DNA of 47,146 nucleotides from a virus: UHGV virus genome UHGV-1361989, one strand, 5' to 3'. The position numbers and the translations under genes were made by a program. The notes under the pieces were generated by a model, which had not been told where the DNA came from, did not search any database, and was given only the letters and a program-made list of their open reading frames with translations. Below, piece after piece: positions 13,497 to 47,146 of this stretch. Each line of letters starts with the position of its first letter. Within the stretch, counting starts at the first letter, position 1.

Positions 13497-14270
13497 CTAT
13501 GGCATGTCAGGCCAGTAAACGTTGCTCTTAGATCTGTTTTCGCTTGGAGTTAACAATTGAAGGTTATGCCAGCAGTGAAGACCGCAAACCAACTTGCTAT
13601 TTATTGGAACAATATGGTCAACGTGCATTCCAAGACTGGCTGCCATTTCATAAACCTTCTCTATCAGAACCCTTTCAGATTCGAACCAAGATGGAATTGA
13701 CCTTCTTTTTAGATATTTATATTTACGCTGGTGATATCTAACAATATTTTTATTTTCAGCCCTCCAGTGTCTTGATTGCTCATTGTGCTTATCTTTGTTT
13801 TCATTGTAATACTTCTTTGATTTTGCCTTTATCTTGCTCTTATTTGCTGCGTAATTACTTTTCTTGAACTCTGATTGGCACTTCTTACATTCAGGCCTAA
13901 GACCATCAAGTGATGATTTGTTTTTATTGAAGTTTTCTTCATTTGCATCAAGAACTGAGTTGCATTTAGAGCAGACCTTCCTTCCATCAACAAGATATCT
14001 CAGCCTTTTACCTTTGTTTCCATCGCATGATTTACAATGAGATTTTAAACCAAGCCTCATCTTCTTGTCTGAGTAGAAGTAATCACTTGTTGCAGGAAGC
14101 ATTAGATTGCATCTTGAGCATTTCTTTTTTGTCCCTGTGCTTTCGCAACCTGCACTTTCCTGAGCAACATTTTGCTTTTGCAGTTCCGATAAACTCACTT
14201 CCGCAAACCTCGCATTTCTTAACGGTGATAGCCATTTCTTACCCTCTATTGTAACGGTTAATTGTTTCAT
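13497..14270 (-). CDS. HNH endonuclease with N-terminal CxxC zinc-finger repeats
   Basis: Repeated CxxC pairs. C-terminal HVDHIVP...N..LLT..ENRSK HNH core. Confidence 0.75.
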   Translation of the reverse strand: MKQLTVTIEGKKWLSPLRNARFAEVSLSELQKQNVAQESAGCESTGTKKKCSRCNLMLPATSDYFYSDKKMRLGLKSHCKSCDGNKGKRLRYLVDGRKVCSKCNSVLDANEENFNKNKSSLDGLRPECKKCQSEFKKSNYAANKSKIKAKSKKYYNENKDKHNEQSRHWRAENKNIVRYHQRKYKYLKRRSIPSWFESERVLIEKVYEMAASLGMHVDHIVPINSKLVCGLHCWHNLQLLTPSENRSKSNVYWPDMP

Positions 14271-14312
14271 TGCAAGTAACGATTGATTGTTTCTTGTGTA
14301 AAGATTACAATG
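14271..14312. promoter_or_regulatory. overlapping divergent sigma70-like promoters (TTGCAA-16-TACAAT leftward; TTGATT-17-TACAAT rightward)
   Basis: Hexamers read directly on both strands between HNH (-) and primase (+). Confidence 0.35.
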
Positions 14313-14342
14313 AATCTACATCATAGTCAACTGGAAGAAATT

Positions 14343-17165: not shown

Positions 17166-17262
17166 AACTCCTCCTTATTTTTTGTGATTATAAAATATTA
17201 AATAAATCGGCGCAATACCTTACCTGCTTGTTCACTGGTCGTGCTTCTGGTTGAAATGGGTA

Positions 17263-17295
17263 AATTTGGATAAGCGTTTGGATAAGTGTTTTTAA
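17263..17295. repeat. tandem direct repeat TGGATAAG(C/T)GTTT x2
   Basis: aaatttGGATAAGCGTTTGGATAAGTGTTTTtaa read directly. Confidence 0.5.
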
Positions 17296-17606
17296 ATACT
17301 ATGTATATGTATTTACTACTATTATTATCAATAGATAGTAGTATTTATCCAATTCAACCCATTTTTTGCTTTGCGCAAATTTTAGCAAAAAAAATGCATC
17401 AAAAATTTTCTACTTTTCTCTCATGGTGAAGGTTTAAGTGATAAATGGTTGAACATTACATAAGTTAATGAATTTACATGGTTATCTATGGTTAAACCAA
17501 AAAAAATCTTGGGTTAAATGGGTTGAGCGTGTTCTATATATATCAACAACTTGCAAAATTGATAACTGTAAGTGATTACTAACTAAATTTTATTTTCACC
17601 ATCATA

Positions 17607-17635
17607 TTGACGTAGATTGAGCGCCATCGTATAGT
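17607..17635 (+). promoter_or_regulatory. rightward early promoter TTGACG-17-TATAGT (conserved box TTGACGTAGATTGA)
   Basis: -35 17607-17612, -10 17630-17635. Leader agaggtgatgaag then ATG 17667. Confidence 0.6.
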
Positions 17636-17666
17636 TACCACGCCAACAACAAAGAGGTGATGAAGA

Positions 17667-17873
17667 ATGACGAGGCTCTATAAAGCAGTAGATAAAATGG
17701 ATGGCAGAGTATCTGCGTTTCTTGTAAGGGATAATGGTGATGTTTGTAAAAGTTTTTGGTACATGGATGATGAGGGTGAAGTTGATGCTGCAAAGCATAC
17801 CGGTAGCCTACAGACGCCATGCAGAAATGGAATGGACGACGCCATCAATCCTGTACTCATCGCGGAGTGGTAA
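17667..17873 (+). CDS. hypothetical early protein
   Basis: RBS AGAGG 9 nt upstream. 68 aa. Confidence 0.5.
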   Translation: MTRLYKAVDKMDGRVSAFLVRDNGDVCKSFWYMDDEGEVDAAKHTGSLQTPCRNGMDDAINPVLIAEW

Positions 17874-20262: not shown

Positions 20263-20725
20263 GCTGTTTGAATACGACAACGGAAATCTGATATGGCGGG
20301 AGGATAGTGGCCGCAAGGCAAGAAAAGGTGAGGTTGCAGGCCACTCAGGGTCAAAAGGATATACGTCGATTTGGTGCTCTGGACGAAAATACTTTGCGCA
20401 CAGAATTATATGGGAAATGCATAATGGCCCTATGACTGGCGAATTGGAGATTGACCATATAAACCATAACCCTGGAGACAACAGGATTGAAAATCTCAGG
20501 CTGACAAATAGGGGAGGGAATCTAAAAAACAAATCTAAGTACTCTAGCAATAGCAGCGGAGTAACGGGCGTACACTGGAGGAAGGATAAGCGAAAGTGGC
20601 AAGCAAAAATAAGGGTTAACAAGAAGTTCATACATCTTGGGTATTTCAACGACATACTTGACGCGGAACTGGCAAGAAAGAAAGCAGAAGAGGAGTATGG
20701 GTTTCACGATAATCATGGTGTATAA
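20240..20725 (+). CDS. HNH homing endonuclease with AP2 domain
   Basis: IDHINHNPGDNRIENLRL + SGVTGVHWRKDKRKWQAKI + C-terminal NHG. Confidence 0.8.
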   Translation: MKRIDWNELFEYDNGNLIWREDSGRKARKGEVAGHSGSKGYTSIWCSGRKYFAHRIIWEMHNGPMTGELEIDHINHNPGDNRIENLRLTNRGGNLKNKSKYSSNSSGVTGVHWRKDKRKWQAKIRVNKKFIHLGYFNDILDAELARKKAEEEYGFHDNHGV

Positions 20726-20755: not shown

Positions 20756-20786
20756 TTAAGCCAGCATTGCGCTGGCTTCTTTTTTA
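20756..20786 (+). terminator. rho-independent terminator
   Basis: AAGCCAGC attgc GCTGGCTT + CTTTTTTAT. Confidence 0.55.
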
Positions 20787-20842
20787 TCTACGCCATGTGG
20801 TAAGATATGTCCTATGTGAGTTACCCAAAGGACACATATAAA

Positions 20843-23321: not shown

Positions 23322-23350
23322 AAAAGCCCCGATAAAGGGGCGGTTTGGTT
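23322..23350 (+). terminator. weak rho-independent terminator
   Basis: GCCCC gataaa GGGGC followed by GGTTTGGTT. Confidence 0.35.
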
Positions 23351-23702
23351 ATGCGTTAATGATAAAATTAAGCGCGCCAGTTTTTCCTGTTTTTTCGACA
23401 TATTCAGCGTATTTCGGGTTGATGCCACCTTTAAAGCTGGCCGCCATCGGCGCAAGGATTTCATACATTACAGCAGCAAAGGTGGCACGTTTATCTTCAT
23501 CAAACGCCAGGTATTCATTGGTCATCTGCTGCTGCTTCTGAAAGAAAGTCACGATTTCTTCATGAATAATTAACATGATCTCTGCATCAGTCATTTCAGC
23601 AGTGACGCGCGCTTTAACACCATCAACGATTAATGGCGCCACCTTCTTGAACTGGTTCATGATGTTTTCCATTTTGATTTCCTCATTCATCTGCGGCACC
23701 AT
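23349..23702 (-). CDS. hypothetical protein
   Basis: 117-aa ORF downstream of leftward promoter-like box. Confidence 0.5.
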   Translation of the reverse strand: MVPQMNEEIKMENIMNQFKKVAPLIVDGVKARVTAEMTDAEIMLIIHEEIVTFFQKQQQMTNEYLAFDEDKRATFAAVMYEILAPMAASFKGGINPKYAEYVEKTGKTGALNFIINA

Positions 23703-23762
23703 TGCCGCCTCAATGGTTTCAATCTACATCAGCAAGTAATCCACGTCAACATTTATAATAAA

Positions 23763-24053: not shown

Positions 24054-24079
24054 AAGATTTCTCCGAGAGGTTTCATTTT

Positions 24080-24108
24080 AATCTACGCCATGCTAGAATC
24101 TACGTCAA
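24080..24108 (-). promoter_or_regulatory. leftward promoter TTGACG-17-TAGATT (conserved box)
   Basis: Reverse complement reads TTGACGtagattctagcatggcgTAGATT, then ggag RBS and ATG of 23763..24053. Confidence 0.5.
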
Positions 24109-24141
24109 GGCGCATTGACATAACTACATCACCGGGGCATC

Positions 24142-25169: not shown

Positions 25170-25174
25170 TACCA

Positions 25175-25183
25175 TGCTATAAT
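25175..25183 (+). promoter_or_regulatory. extended -10 promoter TGcTATAAT upstream of portal gene
   Basis: Read directly. No good -35. Confidence 0.45.
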
Positions 25184-25208
25184 CCCATCCATGCGATGGG
25201 ATTTTTTA
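25182..25208 (+). terminator. rho-independent terminator
   Basis: ATCCCATC catgc GATGGGAT + TTTTT. Confidence 0.6.
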
Positions 25209-25218
25209 TGGTGACGAA

Positions 25219-29152: not shown

Positions 29153-29175
29153 CTTGAATCCCCTGTGTTTGTGTA

Positions 29176-29209
29176 ACTACATCATCGCCTACGATTCAAT
29201 CTACGTCAA
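29176..29209 (-). promoter_or_regulatory. leftward promoter with conserved box TTGACGTAGATTGA
   Basis: Reverse complement TTGACGtagattgaatcgtaggcgaTGATGTAGTTA. Imperfect -10. Confidence 0.45.
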
Positions 29210-29250
29210 TAGGATTATGATAAAATAATCTGCATCACCGGAGGTAACAA

Positions 29251-30905: not shown

Positions 30906-31372
30906 TTTGCATCCTCATTCAGTTCATTAACAATTAATGTTGCATAGCCAGCAATGTCCTTCCAGCTATCGTCATATGTCGGGTCGCCATTCAGGATTCG
31001 ACCGATTTTATGCTGAATCATGTCGAGCGCTTCCTTCTGGCTCGCCGTCAGGTTGTTCCAACCATCAACGTCGCGCATGGTGTCTTTCAGTGACTGCATG
31101 ATTTCTGCACCGTCTTTGAATTTGCCATAGCGGCTTCCGCGCTCGGTGATGAGGCGTCCTGTGGGGGATTCAAATAGCATCCATGGGTCGGGCTCCAGCT
31201 CACGATGAGCGATAATAATGTCGCCAACCTTTTCGATATCCTTATCCCGGCCTGCGTAATCCAAACCGAGATGGTATACCCTGCCAGTTGATGCTGATTT
31301 CACAACAAGAATAGCGCCTGGATGGCCTTCAAAATCTGCTTCACTTCCTTTATGGTATTTGTATTTCATCAC
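30902..31372 (-). CDS. hypothetical protein (156 aa)
   Basis: Coupled ORF. No confident motif. Confidence 0.5.
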   Translation of the reverse strand: MMKYKYHKGSEADFEGHPGAILVVKSASTGRVYHLGLDYAGRDKDIEKVGDIIIAHRELEPDPWMLFESPTGRLITERGSRYGKFKDGAEIMQSLKDTMRDVDGWNNLTASQKEALDMIQHKIGRILNGDPTYDDSWKDIAGYATLIVNELNEDAK

Positions 31373-31569
31373 TCACCTCTCAACGTAACTTTGTTTTTCT
31401 CATCTACGCTGAAATGCTCGCGCACAAACGCATACATTTCTTCGGCGCTCCATTCCCGCATTGCTACATAGCAGTGCGCGTAATATCTGACATCTCGCAG
31501 GCTTAACGGTTGGCGCTTAGCGATAATCTCAGTCAATACTTCCAGTGGTTCTTTGCGTTGTCTCGCCAT
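31369..31569 (-). CDS. hypothetical protein
   Basis: RBS caggag. First gene after leftward promoter box. Confidence 0.5.
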   Translation of the reverse strand: MARQRKEPLEVLTEIIAKRQPLSLRDVRYYAHCYVAMREWSAEEMYAFVREHFSVDEKNKVTLRGE

Positions 31570-31582
31570 TGTCGCTCTCCTG

Positions 31583-31611
31583 TGAAAATCATCTTGACGA
31601 ATCTACGTCAA
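31583..31611 (-). promoter_or_regulatory. leftward promoter with conserved box TTGACGTAGATT
   Basis: Reverse complement TTGACGTAGATTCGTCAAGATGA. -10 poor. Confidence 0.4.
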
Positions 31612-31665
31612 TTAGTCAATACTCTGTGTTGTAGATTGTACCATAATGATAAAAGGTGGTGTGGA

Positions 31666-31964: not shown

Positions 31965-32156
31965 ATGACTACTGATCAGGTGTACGAAAAAGAGTTGCTG
32001 AACAAGCTGGAAGAACTCGACCGCACTCGCGCATGGGTTGAAAGCGAATTGCGCGAGGTTCGCAACCGCATGCAACGGCAGGTTAACCGCGAAATTATCG
32101 AATGGCGCGAGGGGCGCCCGCATTTCAGCAATATTGGTGAATGGGTGGCGAAATGA
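31965..32156 (+). CDS. hypothetical coiled-coil protein
   Basis: 63-aa ORF. Confidence 0.4.
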   Translation: MTTDQVYEKELLNKLEELDRTRAWVESELREVRNRMQRQVNREIIEWREGRPHFSNIGEWVAK

Positions 32157-32392
32157 GCAAGGACAGCACGCTGCATGAATTAATCATGGCCGATATCAGG
32201 GAAAACAACGCAAGGGCCAGATGGCAGCGAAACCAGCCAGACCGCAGAACATTGAAGCAAAAGCTACACCCCAAACGCAGATGGCCGAAAAGAAAGCGGG
32301 ATTATCGCAGGGATAAGGTGTTGCTTAAACTATGTGATATTCAGATGAAATTTATGATTAAGGAGGCGATAAATGAAGCCAATGATGAATGA
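32141..32392 (+). CDS. highly basic Arg/Lys-rich small protein
   Basis: RRTLKQKLHPKRRWPKRKRDYRRDK. Confidence 0.4.
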   Translation: MGGEMSKDSTLHELIMADIRENNARARWQRNQPDRRTLKQKLHPKRRWPKRKRDYRRDKVLLKLCDIQMKFMIKEAINEANDE

Positions 32393-32603
32393 TGAGGGGC
32401 TACTTGAGTGTCCATTTTGCGGTAGCGAAAATTCCATGCAGAACAAGGAGGGGCAATGGCATTTTGTAGTATGCCAGGATTGCGGATGCCGTACTGATGA
32501 CTGGATGGTTGCAGCGACAGCAATCATTAAATGGAATACAAGAGGTGGGTTTGTTTATAGTAATTCTGATTACGAGGATATCAATGATGAAGTGCGATCT
32601 TAA
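32373..32603 (+). CDS. Lar-family zinc-ribbon protein (restriction alleviation-like)
   Basis: CPFCGSEN...CQDCGC two Cys pairs in ~70 aa. Confidence 0.45.
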   Translation: MKPMMNDEGLLECPFCGSENSMQNKEGQWHFVVCQDCGCRTDDWMVAATAIIKWNTRGGFVYSNSDYEDINDEVRS

Positions 32604-33108
32604 TCATGAGGTTGTTTTGTCGTTAATCAATTATAACCCAGAGTCTGGGAAATTCACCAGAAAGAATGGAAAGCAATGCGGTACAAAAACAACGAAGGGG
32701 TACATCCATGTGCGATTGCTTGGTAAAAAGCGTCTTGCGCATCGTTTGGCTTGGTTTTATGTCTACGGCGAATGGCCAGATCATGAAATTGACCATATTA
32801 ACGGAGTAAAGGATGACAACAGGATATGCAATCTAAGGAAGGCAACAAGACAACAAAATGAATGGAACAAGCCGCAGCCAAGCACCAACACGTCTGGCGT
32901 CAAGGGTGCGCGGTTTATGTCAAGCAGAGGAAAATGGCGTGCTGATTGCGTGAGAAAAACACTTGGTTACTTTGACACAAAGCAAGATGCTATTAATGCG
33001 TTAATTAAGCACAGGAGTGAAAAACAAGGGGAATTCAAAAATCACGGCCACCTCTATACTGCTGACGACTACAAACAGGATGCAATGGAGCGCGCAAATG
33101 GACTTTAA
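32584..33108 (+). CDS. HNH homing endonuclease with AP2 domain
   Basis: IDHINGVKDDNRICNLR + SGVKGARFMSSRGKWRADC + NHGH. Confidence 0.8.
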   Translation: MMKCDLNHEVVLSLINYNPESGKFTRKNGKQCGTKTTKGYIHVRLLGKKRLAHRLAWFYVYGEWPDHEIDHINGVKDDNRICNLRKATRQQNEWNKPQPSTNTSGVKGARFMSSRGKWRADCVRKTLGYFDTKQDAINALIKHRSEKQGEFKNHGHLYTADDYKQDAMERANGL

Positions 33109-33568
33109 AACGCAAATACTAACGGTGATAGAGCGCTGCGGCGGCGCAACCAATGCCATGATACGCAAGCAGACTGGCATGACAAACCGTGCCAGCGTTA
33201 CCGGCTATCTGATTGAGCTGGAGGGTATGGGATTTATTATTAAAGAGGAAAGCGTAAGCCATGGCAGGCGCTGCTTTAAGTATTTCCTCAACCCAGATAA
33301 TACCGCGCTCGATTTGGCTATTCAGAGTTATCTTGAGGCGAATCCGGGGCGAAAGAGTAAGCAGATAGCGGAGGCTGTCGGCGTTAACTACACCATCCTC
33401 AAGGCACGCATGCGCTATCTGGCAAGCATTGGTCAGGTTGACCGTGAAATGCTTCCCGGCGGAGCATGGAAATATTACTGGCAGGAGATCATCCCGTTTG
33501 GCATGAGCCGTGACAGGATGATGTTTGAAAAGTTGCTTGCCGCGGTGCGCCAGTCATGTGGGCGGTAA
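33098..33568 (+). CDS. winged helix-turn-helix DNA-binding protein
   Basis: Two wHTH-like segments (ATNAMIRKQTGMTNRASVTGYLIELEGMGFI; SKQIAEAVGVNYTILKARMRYLASIGQV). Confidence 0.5.
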   Translation: MDFKTQILTVIERCGGATNAMIRKQTGMTNRASVTGYLIELEGMGFIIKEESVSHGRRCFKYFLNPDNTALDLAIQSYLEANPGRKSKQIAEAVGVNYTILKARMRYLASIGQVDREMLPGGAWKYYWQEIIPFGMSRDRMMFEKLLAAVRQSCGR

Positions 33569-34485: not shown

Positions 34486-34608
34486 ATGCCAATCATACTG
34501 ATATCATTCTTTGCTACTCTTTTCGCTTTTACCGCATCTCCGCTTTACCTTCTCGCGTCCGTTTCGTGGTGCATATTCATGGTGTGTTATAATCCGGGCA
34601 TAAAGTAA
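34486..34608 (+). CDS. small hydrophobic ORF (40 aa) with SD inside a hairpin
   Basis: caGGAGGtagcagccATG. Inverted repeat GGCTGTTACC / GGTAGCAGCC. Confidence 0.3.
   Translation: MPIILISFFATLFAFTASPLYLLASVSWCIFMVCYNPGIK
34585..34593 (+). promoter_or_regulatory. extended -10 promoter TGtTATAAT upstream of scaffold/protease gene
   Basis: Read directly. RBS ggagaaagg then ATG 34624. Confidence 0.4.
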
Positions 34609-37631: not shown

Positions 37632-37826
37632 ATGGCTAAATATGAAGTAATCGCCAGCGGAATCTTCGTCAAGGATAAAGACGGTCGTCTGCGCGAGCTT
37701 GCTATTGGCGATGTCATTGACGAATCCACTCCGCACATTGAGTCAAAACTTCGCCCGGTTAGTGAGAAAATTCTGGAAGTTGCAACTCCGCAAGAATCGC
37801 AGCCAAAGGCGAAGAAAACCAAGTAA
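37632..37826 (+). CDS. small highly expressed protein (64 aa)
   Basis: Leader GGTTATCATGGCT shared with next gene. Own terminator. Confidence 0.45.
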   Translation: MAKYEVIASGIFVKDKDGRLRELAIGDVIDESTPHIESKLRPVSEKILEVATPQESQPKAKKTK

Positions 37827-39166: not shown

Positions 39167-39423
39167 CTTTGCCGCCTAAATGAAATATTATCTCCACCTA
39201 TTGCAACATAACGGAATTTTCCGCAACCTTTTTTAACCCTGCACTTTCTGTATCGGTAGCGGCGCATTTCATGGTATGCCTTTTCTGTTAAAAGGAATGT
39301 GAATCCTTTATCAATGGCGCCAGCAACCTCAATAACAGCTTTAGACATTTGATCAATAATGTCTTTGGTGCTCATCGAAGACCAATCAACGCCATTACCG
39401 CTATTGATTAACCCTTTCATCAC
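39163..39423 (-). CDS. hypothetical protein
   Basis: 86-aa ORF, ATGA coupling to ParB-like gene. Confidence 0.45.
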   Translation of the reverse strand: MMKGLINSGNGVDWSSMSTKDIIDQMSKAVIEVAGAIDKGFTFLLTEKAYHEMRRYRYRKCRVKKGCGKFRYVAIGGDNISFRRQR

Positions 39424-40235
39424 AGCTTCTCCAGAATAGCCAGAACTTCACTTAACTCAGCGGAAGGAAGGCGCAAAAATTCTTCTGTCTCCTGTGCCAC
39501 ATGACCCTCAGCAACTACCATGTGATCTGCTTCTTTCAGCAACTGAATCAGGCGGTCAATCGGCTTAACTTTTTTGGCCTTGAGCGTTTTCGCCGTCACC
39601 TTATCTTTGCCCTGCGCTTTCGCTTCCTCAACGGCAGCATCAATAACGTTAACGGCATCATCGCCATGCTCGCGCGCCACTGCAACGGCGTTGGCATAGC
39701 TGATTTGGCCTGCATTGATGCGCTGCTTGATGGCATCAGGTACGTCACCAAGTGACAGGTGCATCTGAACATCAGAAACTGAGCGACCGACCTTCTTGGC
39801 GATTTCTTCATTCGTCCACCCGAATCCTTTCAGGCGCACATAAGCCTTTGCACGCTCAAGCGGGTCAAGCTGCTTGCCCTGACTGGAAGACACCATGAAG
39901 GCGATTTTATCCGCTTCATCGCCGGTGAAGTCTTTGCACTCAATGCGCGCAATTGGTATTCCGCGCTCAATGGCACGCAGTGCGCCAAGGTAACGATGCT
40001 GGCCGTCAAGAATCTTGATACGCTTTCCGTCGGCATCAGGAATAACAGTTAACGCAGGGATTGGCTGGCCTGATTCCCAGCACTGCGCGAAGTATTCAAC
40101 GTGCTGCTCATCGGCTTCGCGGATGTTGTACCCCGGCTCAAGATAAAGCTGATCGACAGGAACCTGATAACCTTTGTTGACCACGATTCCGCCGCGAGTT
40201 TCTTTGTCTGAGTAAATTTTTCCGAGAGATGTCAT
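39420..40235 (-). CDS. ParB-like nuclease domain protein
   Basis: ILDGQHRYLGA motif of ParB/Srx N-domain. Start placed at ATG 40235 behind SD tgaggaaaag. In-frame alternative 40271. Confidence 0.7.
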   Translation of the reverse strand: MTSLGKIYSDKETRGGIVVNKGYQVPVDQLYLEPGYNIREADEQHVEYFAQCWESGQPIPALTVIPDADGKRIKILDGQHRYLGALRAIERGIPIARIECKDFTGDEADKIAFMVSSSQGKQLDPLERAKAYVRLKGFGWTNEEIAKKVGRSVSDVQMHLSLGDVPDAIKQRINAGQISYANAVAVAREHGDDAVNVIDAAVEEAKAQGKDKVTAKTLKAKKVKPIDRLIQLLKEADHMVVAEGHVAQETEEFLRLPSAELSEVLAILEKL

Positions 40236-40607: not shown

Positions 40608-40647
40608 CTTCATCACCTCTAACATTTATTGTTGTTTCTACGTCATC

Positions 40648-40676
40648 ACTATAACGACACCCTCAATCTACGTCAA
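40648..40676 (-). promoter_or_regulatory. leftward promoter TTGACG-17-TATAGT (conserved box TTGACGTAGATTGA)
   Basis: Reverse complement TTGACGtagattgagggtgtcgtTATAGT. Near-copy of promoter at 17607. Confidence 0.6.
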
Positions 40677-40837
40677 CACTTTATGATAAAATTAAACCAA
40701 CAACACTCACCCCGCGCTGTTCCGTCCTGAAAAACGTAAGGCGGCGAAATTGGATATAGCAATCGGCGTTATCGTCATAGCGTTTTCGCTGGTTCAGGTG
40801 TACAGATGCTGGAAGTTCATCATTCGGAGAATAATTA

Positions 40838-42758: not shown

Positions 42759-42836
42759 TGGTTACCGCGACAGGATTCGAACCTGTAATCATCCGATTAT
42801 GAGTCGGGTGCTTTAACCAGTTAAGCTAAACGTGAG
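42759..42836 (-). tRNA. tRNA-like gene, anticodon CAU (Met/Ile2-type) with imperfect acceptor stem, possible pseudogene
   Basis: Reverse complement has D-arm GCTT/AAGC, anticodon loop CTCATAA, T-arm ACAGG TTCGAAT CCTGT and 3' CGCGGTA-A-CCA. The 5' strand TCACGTT pairs at only 4 of 7 positions. Confidence 0.4.
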
Positions 42837-42838
42837 TT

Positions 42839-42916
42839 TGGTGCACCATACTGGATTCGAACCAGTGACCTACGGATTAGAAGTCCGTTGCTACTATCCT
42901 GCTGAGCTAATGGTGC
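42839..42916 (-). tRNA. tRNA-Arg (anticodon UCU)
   Basis: Reverse complement GCACCAT...ATGGTGC-A-CCA acceptor, anticodon stem ACGGA/TCCGT, loop CTTCTAA, T-arm ACTGG TTCGAAT CCAGT. Confidence 0.8.
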
Positions 42917-42933
42917 GTTGCGTTGTTGATTCG

Positions 42934-42962
42934 AATCTACACCACCAATAAAAACCTGTCAA
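42934..42962 (-). promoter_or_regulatory. tRNA promoter TTGACA-17-TAGATT
   Basis: Reverse complement TTGACAggtttttattggtggtgTAGATT directly upstream of tRNA-Arg. Confidence 0.5.
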
Positions 42963-42964
42963 CA

Positions 42965-42973
42965 TGATATAAT
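42965..42973 (+). promoter_or_regulatory. extended -10 promoter TGaTATAAT upstream of major tail gene
   Basis: Read directly. RBS agagga before ATG 43008. Confidence 0.5.
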
Positions 42974-43007
42974 GCGATTGTTTAGCTAAACACAGAGGAT
43001 TCTAAAC

Positions 43008-44230: not shown

Positions 44231-44712
44231 TTACCATGGTTCTCATGAAAATCATACTTAACCTCCGCCTTTCTCCTTGCTTCAGCGGCCATATTTAAGT
44301 CAGAAAACAATCCAAGATGAATCTTTACGCCATCAACTTTTATGTTTGAGGCCCATTTTTTATGTTGTTTATCCCATGAAACACCAGTAACACCTGATTT
44401 GTTTGTCACCCTGAACTTCATGTTGTGATTATTCTCTTTTGGAGTGACAAGCCTGAGGTTATCTATCTTATTGTTTGTTTTATTGTGGTCTATATGATCA
44501 ATCTGCATTCCGTCAGGAATTTTCCCATTATGCATTTCCCAGATGATGCGATGAACAAGATACTTGACGCCATAGATTCCAACAATCTTATATCCATTGC
44601 CTCCTACCGCCTTCACCTCGCTTCCGATTTTCACTCTGTTTGAGGTTCTTATCTTCCAGTAAATAGCCCCATCACAATAATAAAAAATATCTGACCAATC
44701 AGTTATTTTCAT
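44227..44712 (-). CDS. HNH homing endonuclease with AP2 domain
   Basis: IDHIDHNKTNNKIDNLRL + SGVTGVSWDKQHKKWASNI + NHGK. Confidence 0.8.
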   Translation of the reverse strand: MKITDWSDIFYYCDGAIYWKIRTSNRVKIGSEVKAVGGNGYKIVGIYGVKYLVHRIIWEMHNGKIPDGMQIDHIDHNKTNNKIDNLRLVTPKENNHNMKFRVTNKSGVTGVSWDKQHKKWASNIKVDGVKIHLGLFSDLNMAAEARRKAEVKYDFHENHGK

Positions 44713-44824
44713 CGAATGTCACCCCTACCATTGCAAGTAATTTTTTCGCCATCAACTCGGCCTCATCATAGGTAAACCCGCAATCAACGTACAGGTCGAT
44801 GTAAAATCTCAAATCAGCATCAGT
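44710..44824 (-). CDS. small ORF (about 38 aa)
   Basis: Stop overlaps HNH ATG. RBS gaggg. Not in ORF track. Confidence 0.3.
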
Positions 44825-44893
44825 CTCGTTCATATGTCAAACCCTCAATCACCTTATGCTTTCAATCTACGTCAGTTTTGCTCCCCCTGTCAA

Positions 44894-44902
44894 TGGTATA
44901 AT
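44894..44902 (+). promoter_or_regulatory. extended -10 promoter TGgTATAAT upstream of tail chaperone gene
   Basis: Read directly. Confidence 0.4.
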
Positions 44903-44930
44903 TACGTCATTGTGAAAACAGGATTTAGAC

Positions 44931-45638
44931 ATGAGACAACGCACACCGCTAACAGAAATCGGAGAGATGCGCATCTCCCTGGCTGACAAGTCTTTTTTCT
45001 TCAAACCATCATTTGCGGCGATGAATGGACTTGGCTCACCGAAAGAAATTGTCGAGCTGTACGCTACGCTTAATGGATATGAATACGCAGCCATACTCGG
45101 CGCCATTCAGTCAATGCCGTATGGCGCGCAGATTCAGGTGGCAAAAATCCTGTCACGTCCTGCCTATGGTAAGAAAGTGCTCAGCGCCGCCTGCCTCATC
45201 ATGCAGTCCTGTTGTGATGATGATATCTCGGTGCTCATTGGGTCATGGAAGCCGACTCCGCGCGGTGTGAAGTACGTCACCGGAAGAATGCCAGTAAATG
45301 ACATTATTATTATTGCTCGCAACCTGATGGAGCATGGCATCATCGGCAAGTCTCCACTCAAGGTTCCTCAGCGCTCGGAAAACCAAAAGCGCACAACAAG
45401 TGAGTTGAGAATGTCGGATTACATCATCTCAGCTCGCACCCATTTCGGAATCACCCGCGAGGAAGCCGAAGACCTGACCATGACCGAGTATCAGCAGATG
45501 ATAAAATCAAAATACCCGGAACCGGAAGGCATGACGCGCGAGCAGTATGATGCGTCCTATGAGCGGGCTAAGCTGAATAAACAGAAACTGAAAGAGAAAG
45601 CCGCCAGAAAGGCCGCTAAAAGCAAAGGAGCAAAATAA
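44931..45638 (+). CDS. tail assembly chaperone (position of lambda G/GT)
   Basis: Between major tail and tape measure. ATGG overlap with TMP start. Lys-rich C-terminus. Confidence 0.45.
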   Translation: MRQRTPLTEIGEMRISLADKSFFFKPSFAAMNGLGSPKEIVELYATLNGYEYAAILGAIQSMPYGAQIQVAKILSRPAYGKKVLSAACLIMQSCCDDDISVLIGSWKPTPRGVKYVTGRMPVNDIIIIARNLMEHGIIGKSPLKVPQRSENQKRTTSELRMSDYIISARTHFGITREEAEDLTMTEYQQMIKSKYPEPEGMTREQYDASYERAKLNKQKLKEKAARKAAKSKGAK

Positions 45639-47146
45639 TGGCAGAAACAGTTGGCGGCATTATCTATGAGGTTGGCATTGACACATCCCAGCTAGTGGCT
45701 GGCAGTCGTGAATTGCAGTCAATGCTAAATGGCCTTAGCGGGAACATGGGGAGACTTGAGGCCAGCGTAAACAGGACGGAGCGCTCCATAAGCTCAATGG
45801 AAGGAACCATGTCGAGCCTCACCGGGGTTGCAAAAGGCTTGCTTGCCGCGCTCTCTGTGCAACAGGTCGGAGCCTACGCTCAGGCGTGGCAGGATATGAG
45901 TAACAAACTCTCTAACGCTGTGAGAGATTCAGTTCCGCCGTTCGAAACCCTTGCCGATGTAACTAATCGTGTTTTTGATATCGCGCAAAAAACACGCTCA
46001 GGACTGGACGCAACGGCCACCCTGTACGCCAGACTTGAGAGGTCTACCAGAAGCTATGGTGTAAGCGTGGAAGACCTGACAAGGCTGACAACAATAATCA
46101 ATCAGGGTTTTGTTGTATCCGGCGCGTCAGCTGAGGAGGCGAGCAACGCAATTATACAGCTTGCACAAGGCATGGCATCTGGCGCCCTTCGAGGAGATGA
46201 GTTTAACTCAGTAAACGAGCAGGGAAACCGGCTCATGATAGCTCTTGCCGACTCTCTGGGTGTTGGCATCGGTGAGCTTAGAAATATGGCTGCGCAAGGG
46301 AAACTGACAACTGATGTTATAGTTAATGGCCTTCTGTCGCAGGGAGACAGTATTGGGAGAGAGTTCGCCAAAACAACTTCTACCATCAGCCAGTCTCTGG
46401 AGATAGCCGGAAATAACGTTGCAAGATTCTTTGGGGAAAACGCAACGGTAAAAACAGGTGTAAAAATCTTTAGCGATTCAGTGATACTGGCAAGTGAAAA
46501 TATTCAGGCGCTTGGCACAGCGCTGACTGTTGTTGCTGGAATAATGGGGAGTCGATATGTAGGCGCGCTGGCAATGTCCACTGCCGCGAAAATATCAGAT
46601 ATAGCAGCATCAAGACAGCAATTAATAGCTGAGAACCAGCAGGCACAATCAGCACTTGTGGCTGCAAATTCCGCGCAGAGGAAGGCTTTAGCTGATAAAG
46701 AGGCGGCGCTATCATCTCTGGCGCTTGCTCAGGCTGAATATAACGTAGCAAAAGGCAGTGCAGCCGAGATGCTGGCGCTTGATGCTCTGGTTGCAGCAAA
46801 ATCAAGAGCTAGTGCCGCGTCACTATCCCTTGCTCAGGCTGAAAACGCACAGGCTACGGCATCAGCGAGAGCAGCATCCGCGGCAAGCGCTGCATCGGTA
46901 GGAATTGGCCTTGCCAGAGGTGCTCTTTCATTGATAGGCGGGCCAGCAGGCGCGGCGATGTTAGCAGCGGGGGCAATATTTTACTTTTGGCAGAAAGCAC
47001 AGCAAGCCAGAGAAGAAGCAATCCGCTTTGCCGATAGTCTGGACAAAGTAAACGCCTCAATGAAGGCGATGAATAATACCCAACTCAGGGGGGTGATAGC
47101 TGACGCCAATATTTCAATTTCGGCGCAAAAGGATGCTGTGAGAAAT
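45638..47146 (+). CDS. tail tape measure protein, N-terminal part (runs off 3' end of window; in frame with position 1)
   Basis: 503 complete codons without stop to last base. Ala-rich coiled coils and hydrophobic GIMGSRYVGALAM segment typical of TMP. Confidence 0.8.
   Translation, partial: MAETVGGIIYEVGIDTSQLVAGSRELQSMLNGLSGNMGRLEASVNRTERSISSMEGTMSSLTGVAKGLLAALSVQQVGAYAQAWQDMSNKLSNAVRDSVPPFETLADVTNRVFDIAQKTRSGLDATATLYARLERSTRSYGVSVEDLTRLTTIINQGFVVSGASAEEASNAIIQLAQGMASGALRGDEFNSVNEQGNRLMIALADSLGVGIGELRNMAAQGKLTTDVIVNGLLSQGDSIGREFAKTTSTISQSLEIAGNNVARFFGENATVKTGVKIFSDSVILASENIQALGTALTVVAGIMGSRYVGALAMSTAAKISDIAASRQQLIAENQQAQSALVAANSAQRKALADKEAALSSLALAQAEYNVAKGSAAEMLALDALVAAKSRASAASLSLAQAENAQATASARAASAASAASVGIGLARGALSLIGGPAGAAMLAAGAIFYFWQKAQQAREEAIRFADSLDKVNASMKAMNNTQLRGVIADANISISAQKDAVRN

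Follow-up and report, generated by a model that had tools for sequence, protein, structure and literature searches.

An asymmetric 11-mer, TGAYGTAGATT, is present in almost every promoter region of the DNA analysed in this study, a single stretch of 47,146 nt referred to below as the window. The 11-mer, which we call the box, recurs far above chance, and it is placed in three different registers relative to predicted sigma-70 promoter elements. On balance, we favour the reading that the window carries about ten host sigma-70-type promoters in which the box is embedded as an operator bound by a trans-acting protein, over the reading that the box is a promoter consensus only.

Genome context and gene map

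The window represents the complete, circularly permuted genome of a Roufvirus-like, lytic siphophage of the Klebsiella type. The tape-measure ORF extends from 45638-47146 into 1-1785, uninterrupted by a stop codon, and encodes 1098 aa; because this ORF crosses the ends of the window, we conclude that the window is a whole, circularly permuted genome. It shows about 90-95% identity with Flyfo siphovirus Tbat1_6, Aeromonas phage pIS4-A and many Klebsiella phages, and about 76-80% identity with Salmonella, E. coli and Shigella phages of the genera Skatevirus, Buchananvirus and Deseoctovirus. The gene map used here is the Tbat1_6 annotation transferred to the window, with added ORFs. Gene blocks switch direction alternately, giving seven divergent junctions (14271-14342, 17166-17666, 24054-24141, 29153-29250, 31570-31665, 40608-40837 and 44834-44930) and seven convergent ones with hairpin terminators, and non-coding DNA amounts to 2588 nt, or 5.5% of the window.

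The box is repeated and concentrated in non-coding DNA

Sequence searches reveal that TTGACGTAGATT occurs exactly at five sites, 17607-17618 on the + strand and 24097-24108, 29198-29209, 31600-31611 and 40665-40676 on the - strand, all of them where the initial annotation of this DNA had placed the box, and that TGACGTAGATT is the commonest 11-mer of the window with six copies. With up to two mismatches TTGACGTAGATT has 15 matches compared with 3.55 ± 1.84 in shuffled sequences, TGAYGTAGATT with up to one mismatch has 16 compared with 1.56 ± 1.28 expected, and the shorter GTAGATT has 13 copies compared with 4.71 ± 2.10 expected. Eleven of these 13 copies lie in the 2588 nt of non-coding DNA (binomial P ~1e-12), while shuffled intergenic DNA contains a mean of 0.48 copies and a maximum of 4 in 2000 shuffles; a similar density inside coding DNA, which had been named as an outcome that would speak against a promoter role, is not what we find. 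Likewise, a weight matrix applied at a threshold of ≥12 bits detects 18 sites, 14 of which are non-coding. The repetition of the box is therefore real and far above chance. A longer 14-mer, TTGACGTAGATTGA, is exact at three sites only (17607, 29196-29209 and 40663-40676); when IMG/VR was scanned with it, at least 119 stretches were found, in which relatives are mixed with chance matches, and these were used solely for a tally of -10 sequences.

The copy reported previously at 44854-44864 actually lies at 44864-44875, ten bases away, and reads CTGACGTAGATT. The degenerate copy reported at 23721 is present, but a better copy beside it, TTGACGTGGATT at 23738-23749, had been overlooked. While the core sites of the earlier list stand, the copies at 14313, 20785, 24080, 24121, 29174, 29227, 31627 (+ strand), 40635, 42934 and 44899 had been missed. 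All seven divergent junctions carry the box, as do the co-directional gap 23703-23762 and the tRNA promoter. The boxes are intergenic and each is oriented into the neighbouring operon, which agrees with their earlier description as promoter elements. Most of the box-bearing regulatory regions have two or three copies. The distance between copies varies (17, 24 or 29-30 nt), so that there is no sign of a fixed cooperative geometry. A further sequence, TTGACGAAGATT, lies antisense within gene 37632-37826 (37661-37672, - strand) and is kept in Tbat1_6 and pIS4-A; it is probably mere coding sequence because no usable -10 follows it.

The box is placed in three registers within predicted sigma-70 promoters

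The 11-mer fits the sigma-70 hexamers at both of its ends, the 5' part as a -35 (TTGACG) and the 3' part as a -10 (TAGATT). In the first type of promoter the box is fused to the -35, in the form TTGACG-TAGATT(GA)-N9-hexamer, and the hexamer lies exactly 17 nt past the -35. The -10 of this type is TATAGT at 17607 and 40665, the two copies for which a 17-nt spacer and this hexamer had already been noted, TAGATT at 24097 and 23738, and GATGAT at 29198. In the second type the box serves as the -10, in the form TTGACA/TTGACG-17/18-G(A/G)(T/C)G-TAGATT, as seen at 23721, 24080, 42934 and 44864. In the third type the box lies in the spacer, 1-2 nt past a TTGACT -35 in the window (14313 and probably 31600) and 1-3 nt past it across the aligned genera. 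The registers of the box are about -34 to -24, -28 to -17 and -17 to -7. Accordingly, the initial proposal that TTGACG is the -35 in each case holds for 17607, 40665, 24097, 23738 and 29198, but not for 23721, 24080, 42934 and 44864, where the box is the -10, nor for 14313 and probably 31600, where it is in the spacer. All box promoters have the features expected of sigma-70 promoters: a -35 of TTGACG, TTGACA or TTGACT, a -10 with A2 and T6 (TATAGT, TAGATT, GATGAT or TAATCT) at 17-18 nt, within the usual 17 ± 1 nt, and an intergenic position facing a downstream gene with a leader and a Shine-Dalgarno sequence (SD). We also considered whether the TAGATT after the -35 might be the -10 of a second, tandem promoter, and rejected this candidate for want of a -35 or a TG element at the right distance.

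At 17607-17618 (+ strand), TTGACGTAGATT is fused to the -35 of the predicted promoter of the + strand operon that starts at 17667, with the -10 TATAGT at 17630-17635 and the SD GAGGTGATGAAG at 17654-17665. At 14313-14323 (- strand), TGATGTAGATT lies in the spacer of TTGACT (14325-14330)-17-TAATCT (14302-14307), a predicted promoter that feeds the leftward replication/recombination operon, and its reverse complement begins 1 nt past TACAAT (14306-14311), the + strand -10 of the primase promoter. The box-like TGGCGTAGATA at 20785-20795 (- strand) has its reverse complement 2 nt upstream of the + strand extended -10 TGGTAAGAT (20798-20806). Tandem boxes are found at 23721-23749 (- strand), where TTGACGTGGATT at 23738-23749 acts as the -35 and TGATGTAGATT at 23721-23731 gives the -10 TAGATT after a 17-nt spacer, in a predicted promoter serving gene 23349-23702 (- strand). 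Junction 24054-24141 has three - strand boxes between 24080 and 24131, namely TGATGTAGTTA (24121-24131), TTGACGTAGATT (24097-24108, the -35) and TGGCGTAGATT (24080-24090, the -10), and a + strand extended -10, TGCTAGAAT (24091-24099), is interleaved with them. Junction 29153-29250 also has three - strand boxes (29174-29237): TGATGCAGATT at 29227-29237, TTGACGTAGATT at 29198-29209 as the -35 of a promoter with the -10 GATGAT (29181-29186), and TGATGTAGTTA at 29174-29184; the partner is the + strand extended -10 TGATAAAAT (29218-29226), for the lysis genes.

Junction 31570-31665 carries two back-to-back boxes on both strands (31600-31637). On the - strand TTGACT (31614-31619) precedes TTGACGTAGATT (31600-31611), and gene 31666 is preceded on the + strand by TGTTGTAGATT (31627-31637). 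Judged from sequence context, the box at 31600 probably lies in the spacer: a conserved TTGACT stands upstream of it, 2 nt away in the window and 3 nt away in Skate, Sa179lw and DS8, no usable -10 is found 16-18 nt after TTGACG in any genus compared, and a weak CAAGAT lies 17 nt after TTGACT. At 40635-40676 (- strand), TTGACGTAGATT (40665-40676) provides the -35 and TATAGT (40648-40653) the -10, a second copy, TGACGTAGAAA (40635-40645), lies at about +1, and the leader runs to an SD at 40608-40619; the partner is again TGATAAAAT as a + strand extended -10, at 40684-40692. At 42934-42962 (- strand) the box is the -10 in TTGACA (42957-42962)-17-[TGGTG]TAGATT (42934-42944). No other promoter is recognisable in the short gap that precedes two - strand tRNA genes (42762-42835 and 42842-42916), which this one is predicted to serve, and its partner is the + strand extended -10 TGATATAAT (42965-42973), for the major tail gene. 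At 44864-44909 (- strand) the box is also the -10, in TTGACA (44888-44893)-18-TAGATT within CTGACGTAGATT (44864-44875), and would serve gene 44702-44833 (- strand). We read it as a -10 because, were CTGACG the -35, transcription would begin within the ribosome-binding site. The + strand extended -10 TGGTATAAT (44894-44902) shares its last bases with a partial copy of the box, TGACGTAATTA (44899-44909).

Box promoters face predicted extended -10 promoters on the opposite strand

The structural and lysis operons are predicted to leave the box junctions from extended -10 elements (TGnTAnAAT) that have no -35. In addition to the elements given above, TGCTATAAT is found at 25175, TGCTAAAAT at 17379 (- strand) and TGTTATAAT at 34585. 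Such elements are enriched in the junctions, with 7 of 15 in non-coding DNA. Within a pair, about 21-59 bp is all that separates the two predicted start sites; from these coordinates we infer that two polymerases could not occupy a pair together. In several junctions the box, read in reverse complement, adjoins or overlaps the partner -10. It follows the -10 at 14306 (TACAAT-G-AATCTACATCA) and directly at 29221 (TAAAAT-AATCTGCATCA), starts inside the partner -10 at 24094 (TAG[AATCTACGTCA]) and overlaps it at 44897 (TAT[AAT-TACGTCA]). It can also precede the TG element, immediately at 24080 and at a distance of 2 nt at 20785.

The box is conserved across related genera

The box is also present in Tbat1_6, pIS4-A and ZX4 (Roufvirus-like), it ranks first or within the first three 11-mers in Skatevirus and Buchananvirus, and it is found again in Deseoctovirus. 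TGACGTAGATT is the top 11-mer in both Tbat1_6 and pIS4-A; in Skate TGATGTAGATT ranks first and TTGACGTAGAT third, in Sa179lw the same two 11-mers are just under the top rank with four copies each, and the box recurs in ZX4 and DS8. Alignments of orthologous junctions reveal that the box, TTGAC, the -10 and the extended -10 of the partner are invariant, whereas the other nine bases of the spacer and the flanks differ between genera. In seven genomes every promoter with the box at the -35 retains GTAGATT intact in one copy or more. In these genomes a perfect copy at the -10 goes with a -35-linked copy that has usually decayed to TGGATT, TAGAAT or TAGATA, the exception being 24097-24108, where both GTAGATT copies are perfect. 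The second copy of the box may even invert between genera, reading ATCTACATC in Skate and DS8 versus GATGTAGTTA in the window, and the distance from box promoter to partner shifts by 4 nt between genomes at junction 42917-43007. We searched the literature for the motif strings, for promoters of Roufvirus, Skatevirus and Buchananvirus and for genome papers on related Klebsiella phages, and found no description of the box; nor did these searches find start-site, expression-timing or protein-DNA binding data for this phage group.

The two most similar promoter-leader modules

The promoter and leader at 17607-17669 and those at 40676-40605 had been described as near-identical modules duplicated in inverted orientation. 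They are the most alike pair among the box promoters and share TTGACGTAGATTGAG, TATAGT at a 17-nt spacer, CAACAA and the SD block AGAGGTGATGAAG. The overall match, however, is 68 of 101 aligned columns (67%), and the alignment is interrupted by three longer gaps (5, 5 and 2 columns) as well as by several of a single base. The apparent duplication is largely a matter of shared consensus signals. GAGGTGAT is the complement of the 3' end of 16S rRNA, GAGGTGA has 13 copies in the window, of which several closely precede a start codon, and the same SD is found before other genes in relatives. The promoter and leader at 40676 are almost invariant across genera, including the second box-like copy at about +1. 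As a separate observation, the leader of some 40 nt at 40608-40647 (GATGACGTAGAAACAACAATAAATGTTAGAGGTGATGA), which belongs to the operon of a ParB-like protein, is nearly identical in four genera, and the first gene downstream of it is poorly conserved.

Candidate binding proteins

The sole product annotated as a regulator is encoded at 33098-33568 (+ strand). This MarR-like protein of 156 aa is modelled as a winged helix with a second helical HTH-like domain, has weak matches to MarR/HTH_24 and a match to PHROG 1687; the structural neighbours of the model are generic MarR/PadR proteins. It is only about 37% identical between genera whose box is identical, while residues Y98, K102, R104 and R106 in a helix of the second domain are retained. 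The Salmonella phage seszw has a viable genome-reduced mutant (PMC9825161). Comparison of L127 (MZ375345; 1744-1775) with L003 (12212-12700) shows that the MarR-like homologue is deleted in the reduced genome, seszw_260L, and that all box promoters are kept. By gene numbering the same genome also appears to be without its SSB gene, and the ParB-like gene is retained. We have therefore rejected the MarR-like protein as an essential switch; the homologue is dispensable, so it is not an essential activator, and the protein could be a dispensable repressor.

A second candidate is the conserved 66-aa protein encoded at 31369-31569 (- strand), a predicted minimal winged helix with no significant fold matches. 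Its gene is the first out of the two-box junction and is kept in seszw_260L. A ParB/KorB-like HTH protein (39420-40235, - strand) is a weaker candidate. It is 81% identical across genera and kept in the minimal seszw genome. We downgraded it as the box binder because a parS-like palindrome elsewhere suits it better and because phage ECO1230-10 encodes a 50%-identical homologue, has a different near-palindromic repeat and is without the box. This parS- or KorB-operator-like palindrome, TGTTTAGCTAAACA, is a 14-bp sequence at 42979-42992, present as a single copy in the leader of the major tail gene, with GTTAGCAGCTAAC at the same place in Skate; judging from its form, it is likely the target of the ParB/KorB-like protein. 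In ECO1230-10, an unrelated phage, the near-palindrome ACAAT(C/G)ATTGT has six copies and may be the site of that phage's own ParB-like protein. The product of 32141-32392, proposed earlier as a DNA-binding protein, is a DUF7301 protein in which no DNA-binding signature was found. To our knowledge, the motifs of CRP, FNR, IHF, MetJ, DnaA, NarL and other host regulators give no convincing match to the box.

A proposed embedded operator and its alternatives

The same 11-mer is conserved in different registers, which suggests an operator embedded in sigma-70 promoters. With a 5' half that fits the -35 and a 3' half that fits the -10, the 11-mer can be placed over either hexamer, as expected if selection keeps the operator itself. 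This register-independent conservation favours the second possibility raised in the initial annotation, that TAGATT is a binding site for a regulator, although the binder is a candidate only. The box is a repeated site that overlaps core promoter elements and is conserved beyond the needs of RNA polymerase, as an operator should be. It lacks the dyad symmetry of lambda-type operators, being asymmetric, and only 31600 forms TTGACG...CGTCAA; an asymmetric operator of the P1 C1 type is still compatible with it. The match of the box to the sigma-70 hexamers weighs to some extent against an operator, in that some of the conservation can be explained without a further factor. In the favoured reading, the box promoters are probably active sigma-70 promoters that drive the non-structural small-gene, replication, recombination, immunity and tRNA operons. 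The gene content of these operons makes an early class likely. The 11-mer could be joined to the -35, follow it closely in the spacer or form the -10, and the positions outside the hexamers (GTAGATTGA after the -35 and GAYG before the -10) would be kept as an operator for a trans-acting protein, either phage-encoded, with a winged-helix protein as the candidate, or possibly of host origin. Binding at the box would shut the box promoters; since the two members of a pair overlap, it would also redirect RNA polymerase towards or away from the opposing promoter.

The main alternative, which we regard as a serious but distinctly less probable one, is that the box is purely a signal for RNA polymerase: the promoters would be strong sigma-70 promoters that arose by copying of a single ancestral module and have no dedicated regulator, with TAGATT as the preferred -10 of the phage and the sequence after the -35 kept for strength or DNA shape. 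Both halves of the box match sigma-70 hexamers, every box site has a partner hexamer at 17-18 nt or sits in a spacer, and the sole annotated regulator is dispensable. Moreover, the hosts of all these genera share sigma-70, which would account for identical motifs despite divergent phage proteins. What this alternative explains poorly is the sequence TAGATTGA at -29 to -22, which does not change between genera, unlike the 9 nt that follow. No sigma-70 contact is known at positions -29 to -22, and the TAGATT there has no -35 or TG element with which to serve as a second -10. Hexamers alone do not account for the invariant GTAGATTGA at about -29 to -22, for GAYG before the -10, or for the extra copies, some of which lie at about +1, others in front of the -35 or in spacers, and some inverted.

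The embedded operator might have a wider role, and a tentative extension, which we consider rather unlikely, makes the 11-mer the operator of a genome-wide timing switch that works with neither a late sigma factor nor an activator. A small winged-helix protein, itself made from a box promoter, would bind the boxes over the -35 or -10 of about ten early promoters, occlude these and free the extended -10 late promoters with which they are interleaved back to back. Occupancy of the boxes would silence early transcription, end promoter competition and pass RNA polymerase to the late partners, which have an extended -10 without a -35 and would drive head, tail or lysis genes. The ParB/KorB-like protein may assist, and would load at the single parS-like palindrome.

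It is improbable that the promoter-leader modules are kept mainly as homology linkers for the swapping of cassettes between phage genomes. Alignment to all three relatives compared (Tbat1_6, pIS4-A and ZX4) does break at 17671/2, a few bases from the start codon that follows the 17607 module, and further breaks lie at 17588, at 23690-23703, at 25170 and, exactly at the edge of a box, at 42933. At junction 44834-44930 the box separates a flank that is identical in the window, Tbat1_6, pIS4-A and ZX4 from one in which these four sequences are unrelated. These breakpoints lie at the modules, and therefore the modules flank swappable cassettes. From the comparison of these sequences, however, cassette-flanking seems at most a secondary role and is expected for viable mosaics, since any of these breaks at gene or promoter boundaries and needs no dedicated signal; the linker explanation also leaves the overlap of the box with the -35 and -10 unaccounted for. 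The exact blocks are merely 11-15 nt long. In the relatives examined, the matches are joined on a single strand and no inversion was noticed between the inverted copies. For the suggestion that the two modules form a hotspot of intragenomic recombination we find no evidence, identical blocks being 15 nt or shorter.

That the box is the promoter of a phage-encoded RNA polymerase or sigma factor is very improbable, for although it is long, conserved and phage-specific, recalling single-element phage promoters, and part of the 40665 spacer (...GGTGTCGTTATAG) loosely resembles the SP6/T7 promoter core, this likeness is not common to the other boxes, no polymerase-sized or sigma-like gene was found, neither the window nor its relatives have an ORF or annotation for a single-subunit RNA polymerase, the largest ORFs match or are syntenic to the tape measure, tail, tailspike/fibre, helicase, portal, terminase and head genes of relatives, and about 20 small proteins scanned against Pfam and PHROG include no match to a sigma factor or RNA polymerase.

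Comparison with known systems

Promoter families and promoter-embedded operators are already well known from lambda, P1, T4 and T5/T7. Relative to the literature searched, what is new is the box itself, the three registers that it occupies and the fact that it is paired with extended -10 promoters in several genera. As in OR and OL of lambda (PR, PL and PRM), a repeated sequence is embedded in the -35, the spacer and the -10, paralogous promoters share long boxes, and divergent promoters overlap; in lambda these are switched by occupancy, a role that for the box is only proposed. The lambda operators differ in being 17-bp near-palindromes at two loci with known repressors, whereas the box is an asymmetric 11-mer in about ten regions of a lytic phage and has candidate binders. 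The C1 operators of P1/P7 are asymmetric 17-bp sites, present in many copies genome-wide and overlapping promoter elements of many operons, and the box resembles them in its asymmetry, scatter and overlap with promoter elements. However, P1 is temperate and its C1 maintains lysogeny, the box has no sequence similarity to the C1 sites, and no C1 homologue is found among the window proteins scanned. Like the MotA box of T4, the box is phage-specific, centred near -30 and about 11-12 nt upstream of a sigma-70 -10. Unlike the MotA box, which replaces the -35 and needs MotA and AsiA, it contains a consensus -35 and occurs also at the -10 and in spacers, and the window proteins scanned gave no match to MotA or AsiA; it does not fit the MotA type. 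The phi29 p4 switch and the KorA/KorB regulon of RK2 are similar in placing a global regulator at closely spaced divergent promoters, and the window encodes a ParB/KorB-type protein; KorB and ParB sites, in contrast, are palindromes, and the sole such palindrome in the window (42979-42992) is not the box. The early promoters of T5 and T7 (A1-A3) are likewise paralogous strong sigma-70 promoters with homology past the hexamers, AT-rich upstream sequence and strong ribosome-binding sites, but these families do not reuse a single motif in three registers or on both strands.

The transcription programme of a large group of siphophages of Klebsiella, Salmonella, E. coli and Shigella, which are under development for therapy and biocontrol, is otherwise unannotated, and the box offers a simple and testable way into it. 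The box also predicts co-regulated operons, and it marks both predicted strong promoter-leader modules that are portable for phage engineering and points of accessory-cassette exchange between phages. The operator reading, if true, would give a compact case of early/late switching by promoter occlusion at many junctions simultaneously.

Other features of the window

Several minor observations were made alongside this analysis. The 501-nt AT-rich gap beside the helicase operon contains, at 17248-17526, box-free repeats: AAATGGGT(A/T)(A/G)A in direct as well as inverted copies, TTTGGATAAG(C/T)G in tandem alongside an inverted TTATCCAA, and the palindrome TACTACTAT/ATAGTAGTA. From its repeats this cluster may be a replication origin. 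It fits an origin better than the boxes do, whose copies are dispersed over 30 kb and not clustered like the iterons of an origin. Rfam detects two tRNAs in the window and nothing else. The tRNA at 42762-42835 is an Rfam match (48 bits) that was missed by ARAGORN; it adjoins tRNA-Arg(TCT) at 42839-42916, and in several relatives unrelated sequence stands in its position. An HNH endonuclease gene (Pfam HNH_3) is found at 32497-33108, and two others are probable, at 20444-20725 and 13497-14270, as judged from the annotation of relatives or from synteny. These genes, one sure and two probable, split syntenic blocks, and the same segments are unalignable to relatives. Just upstream of the portal gene, at 25170-25218, the extended -10 TGCTATAAT coincides in part with the first arm of a terminator hairpin (AATCCCATCC...GGGATTTTTT). 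This hairpin would end upstream transcripts, and transcripts of the predicted promoter would begin within it.
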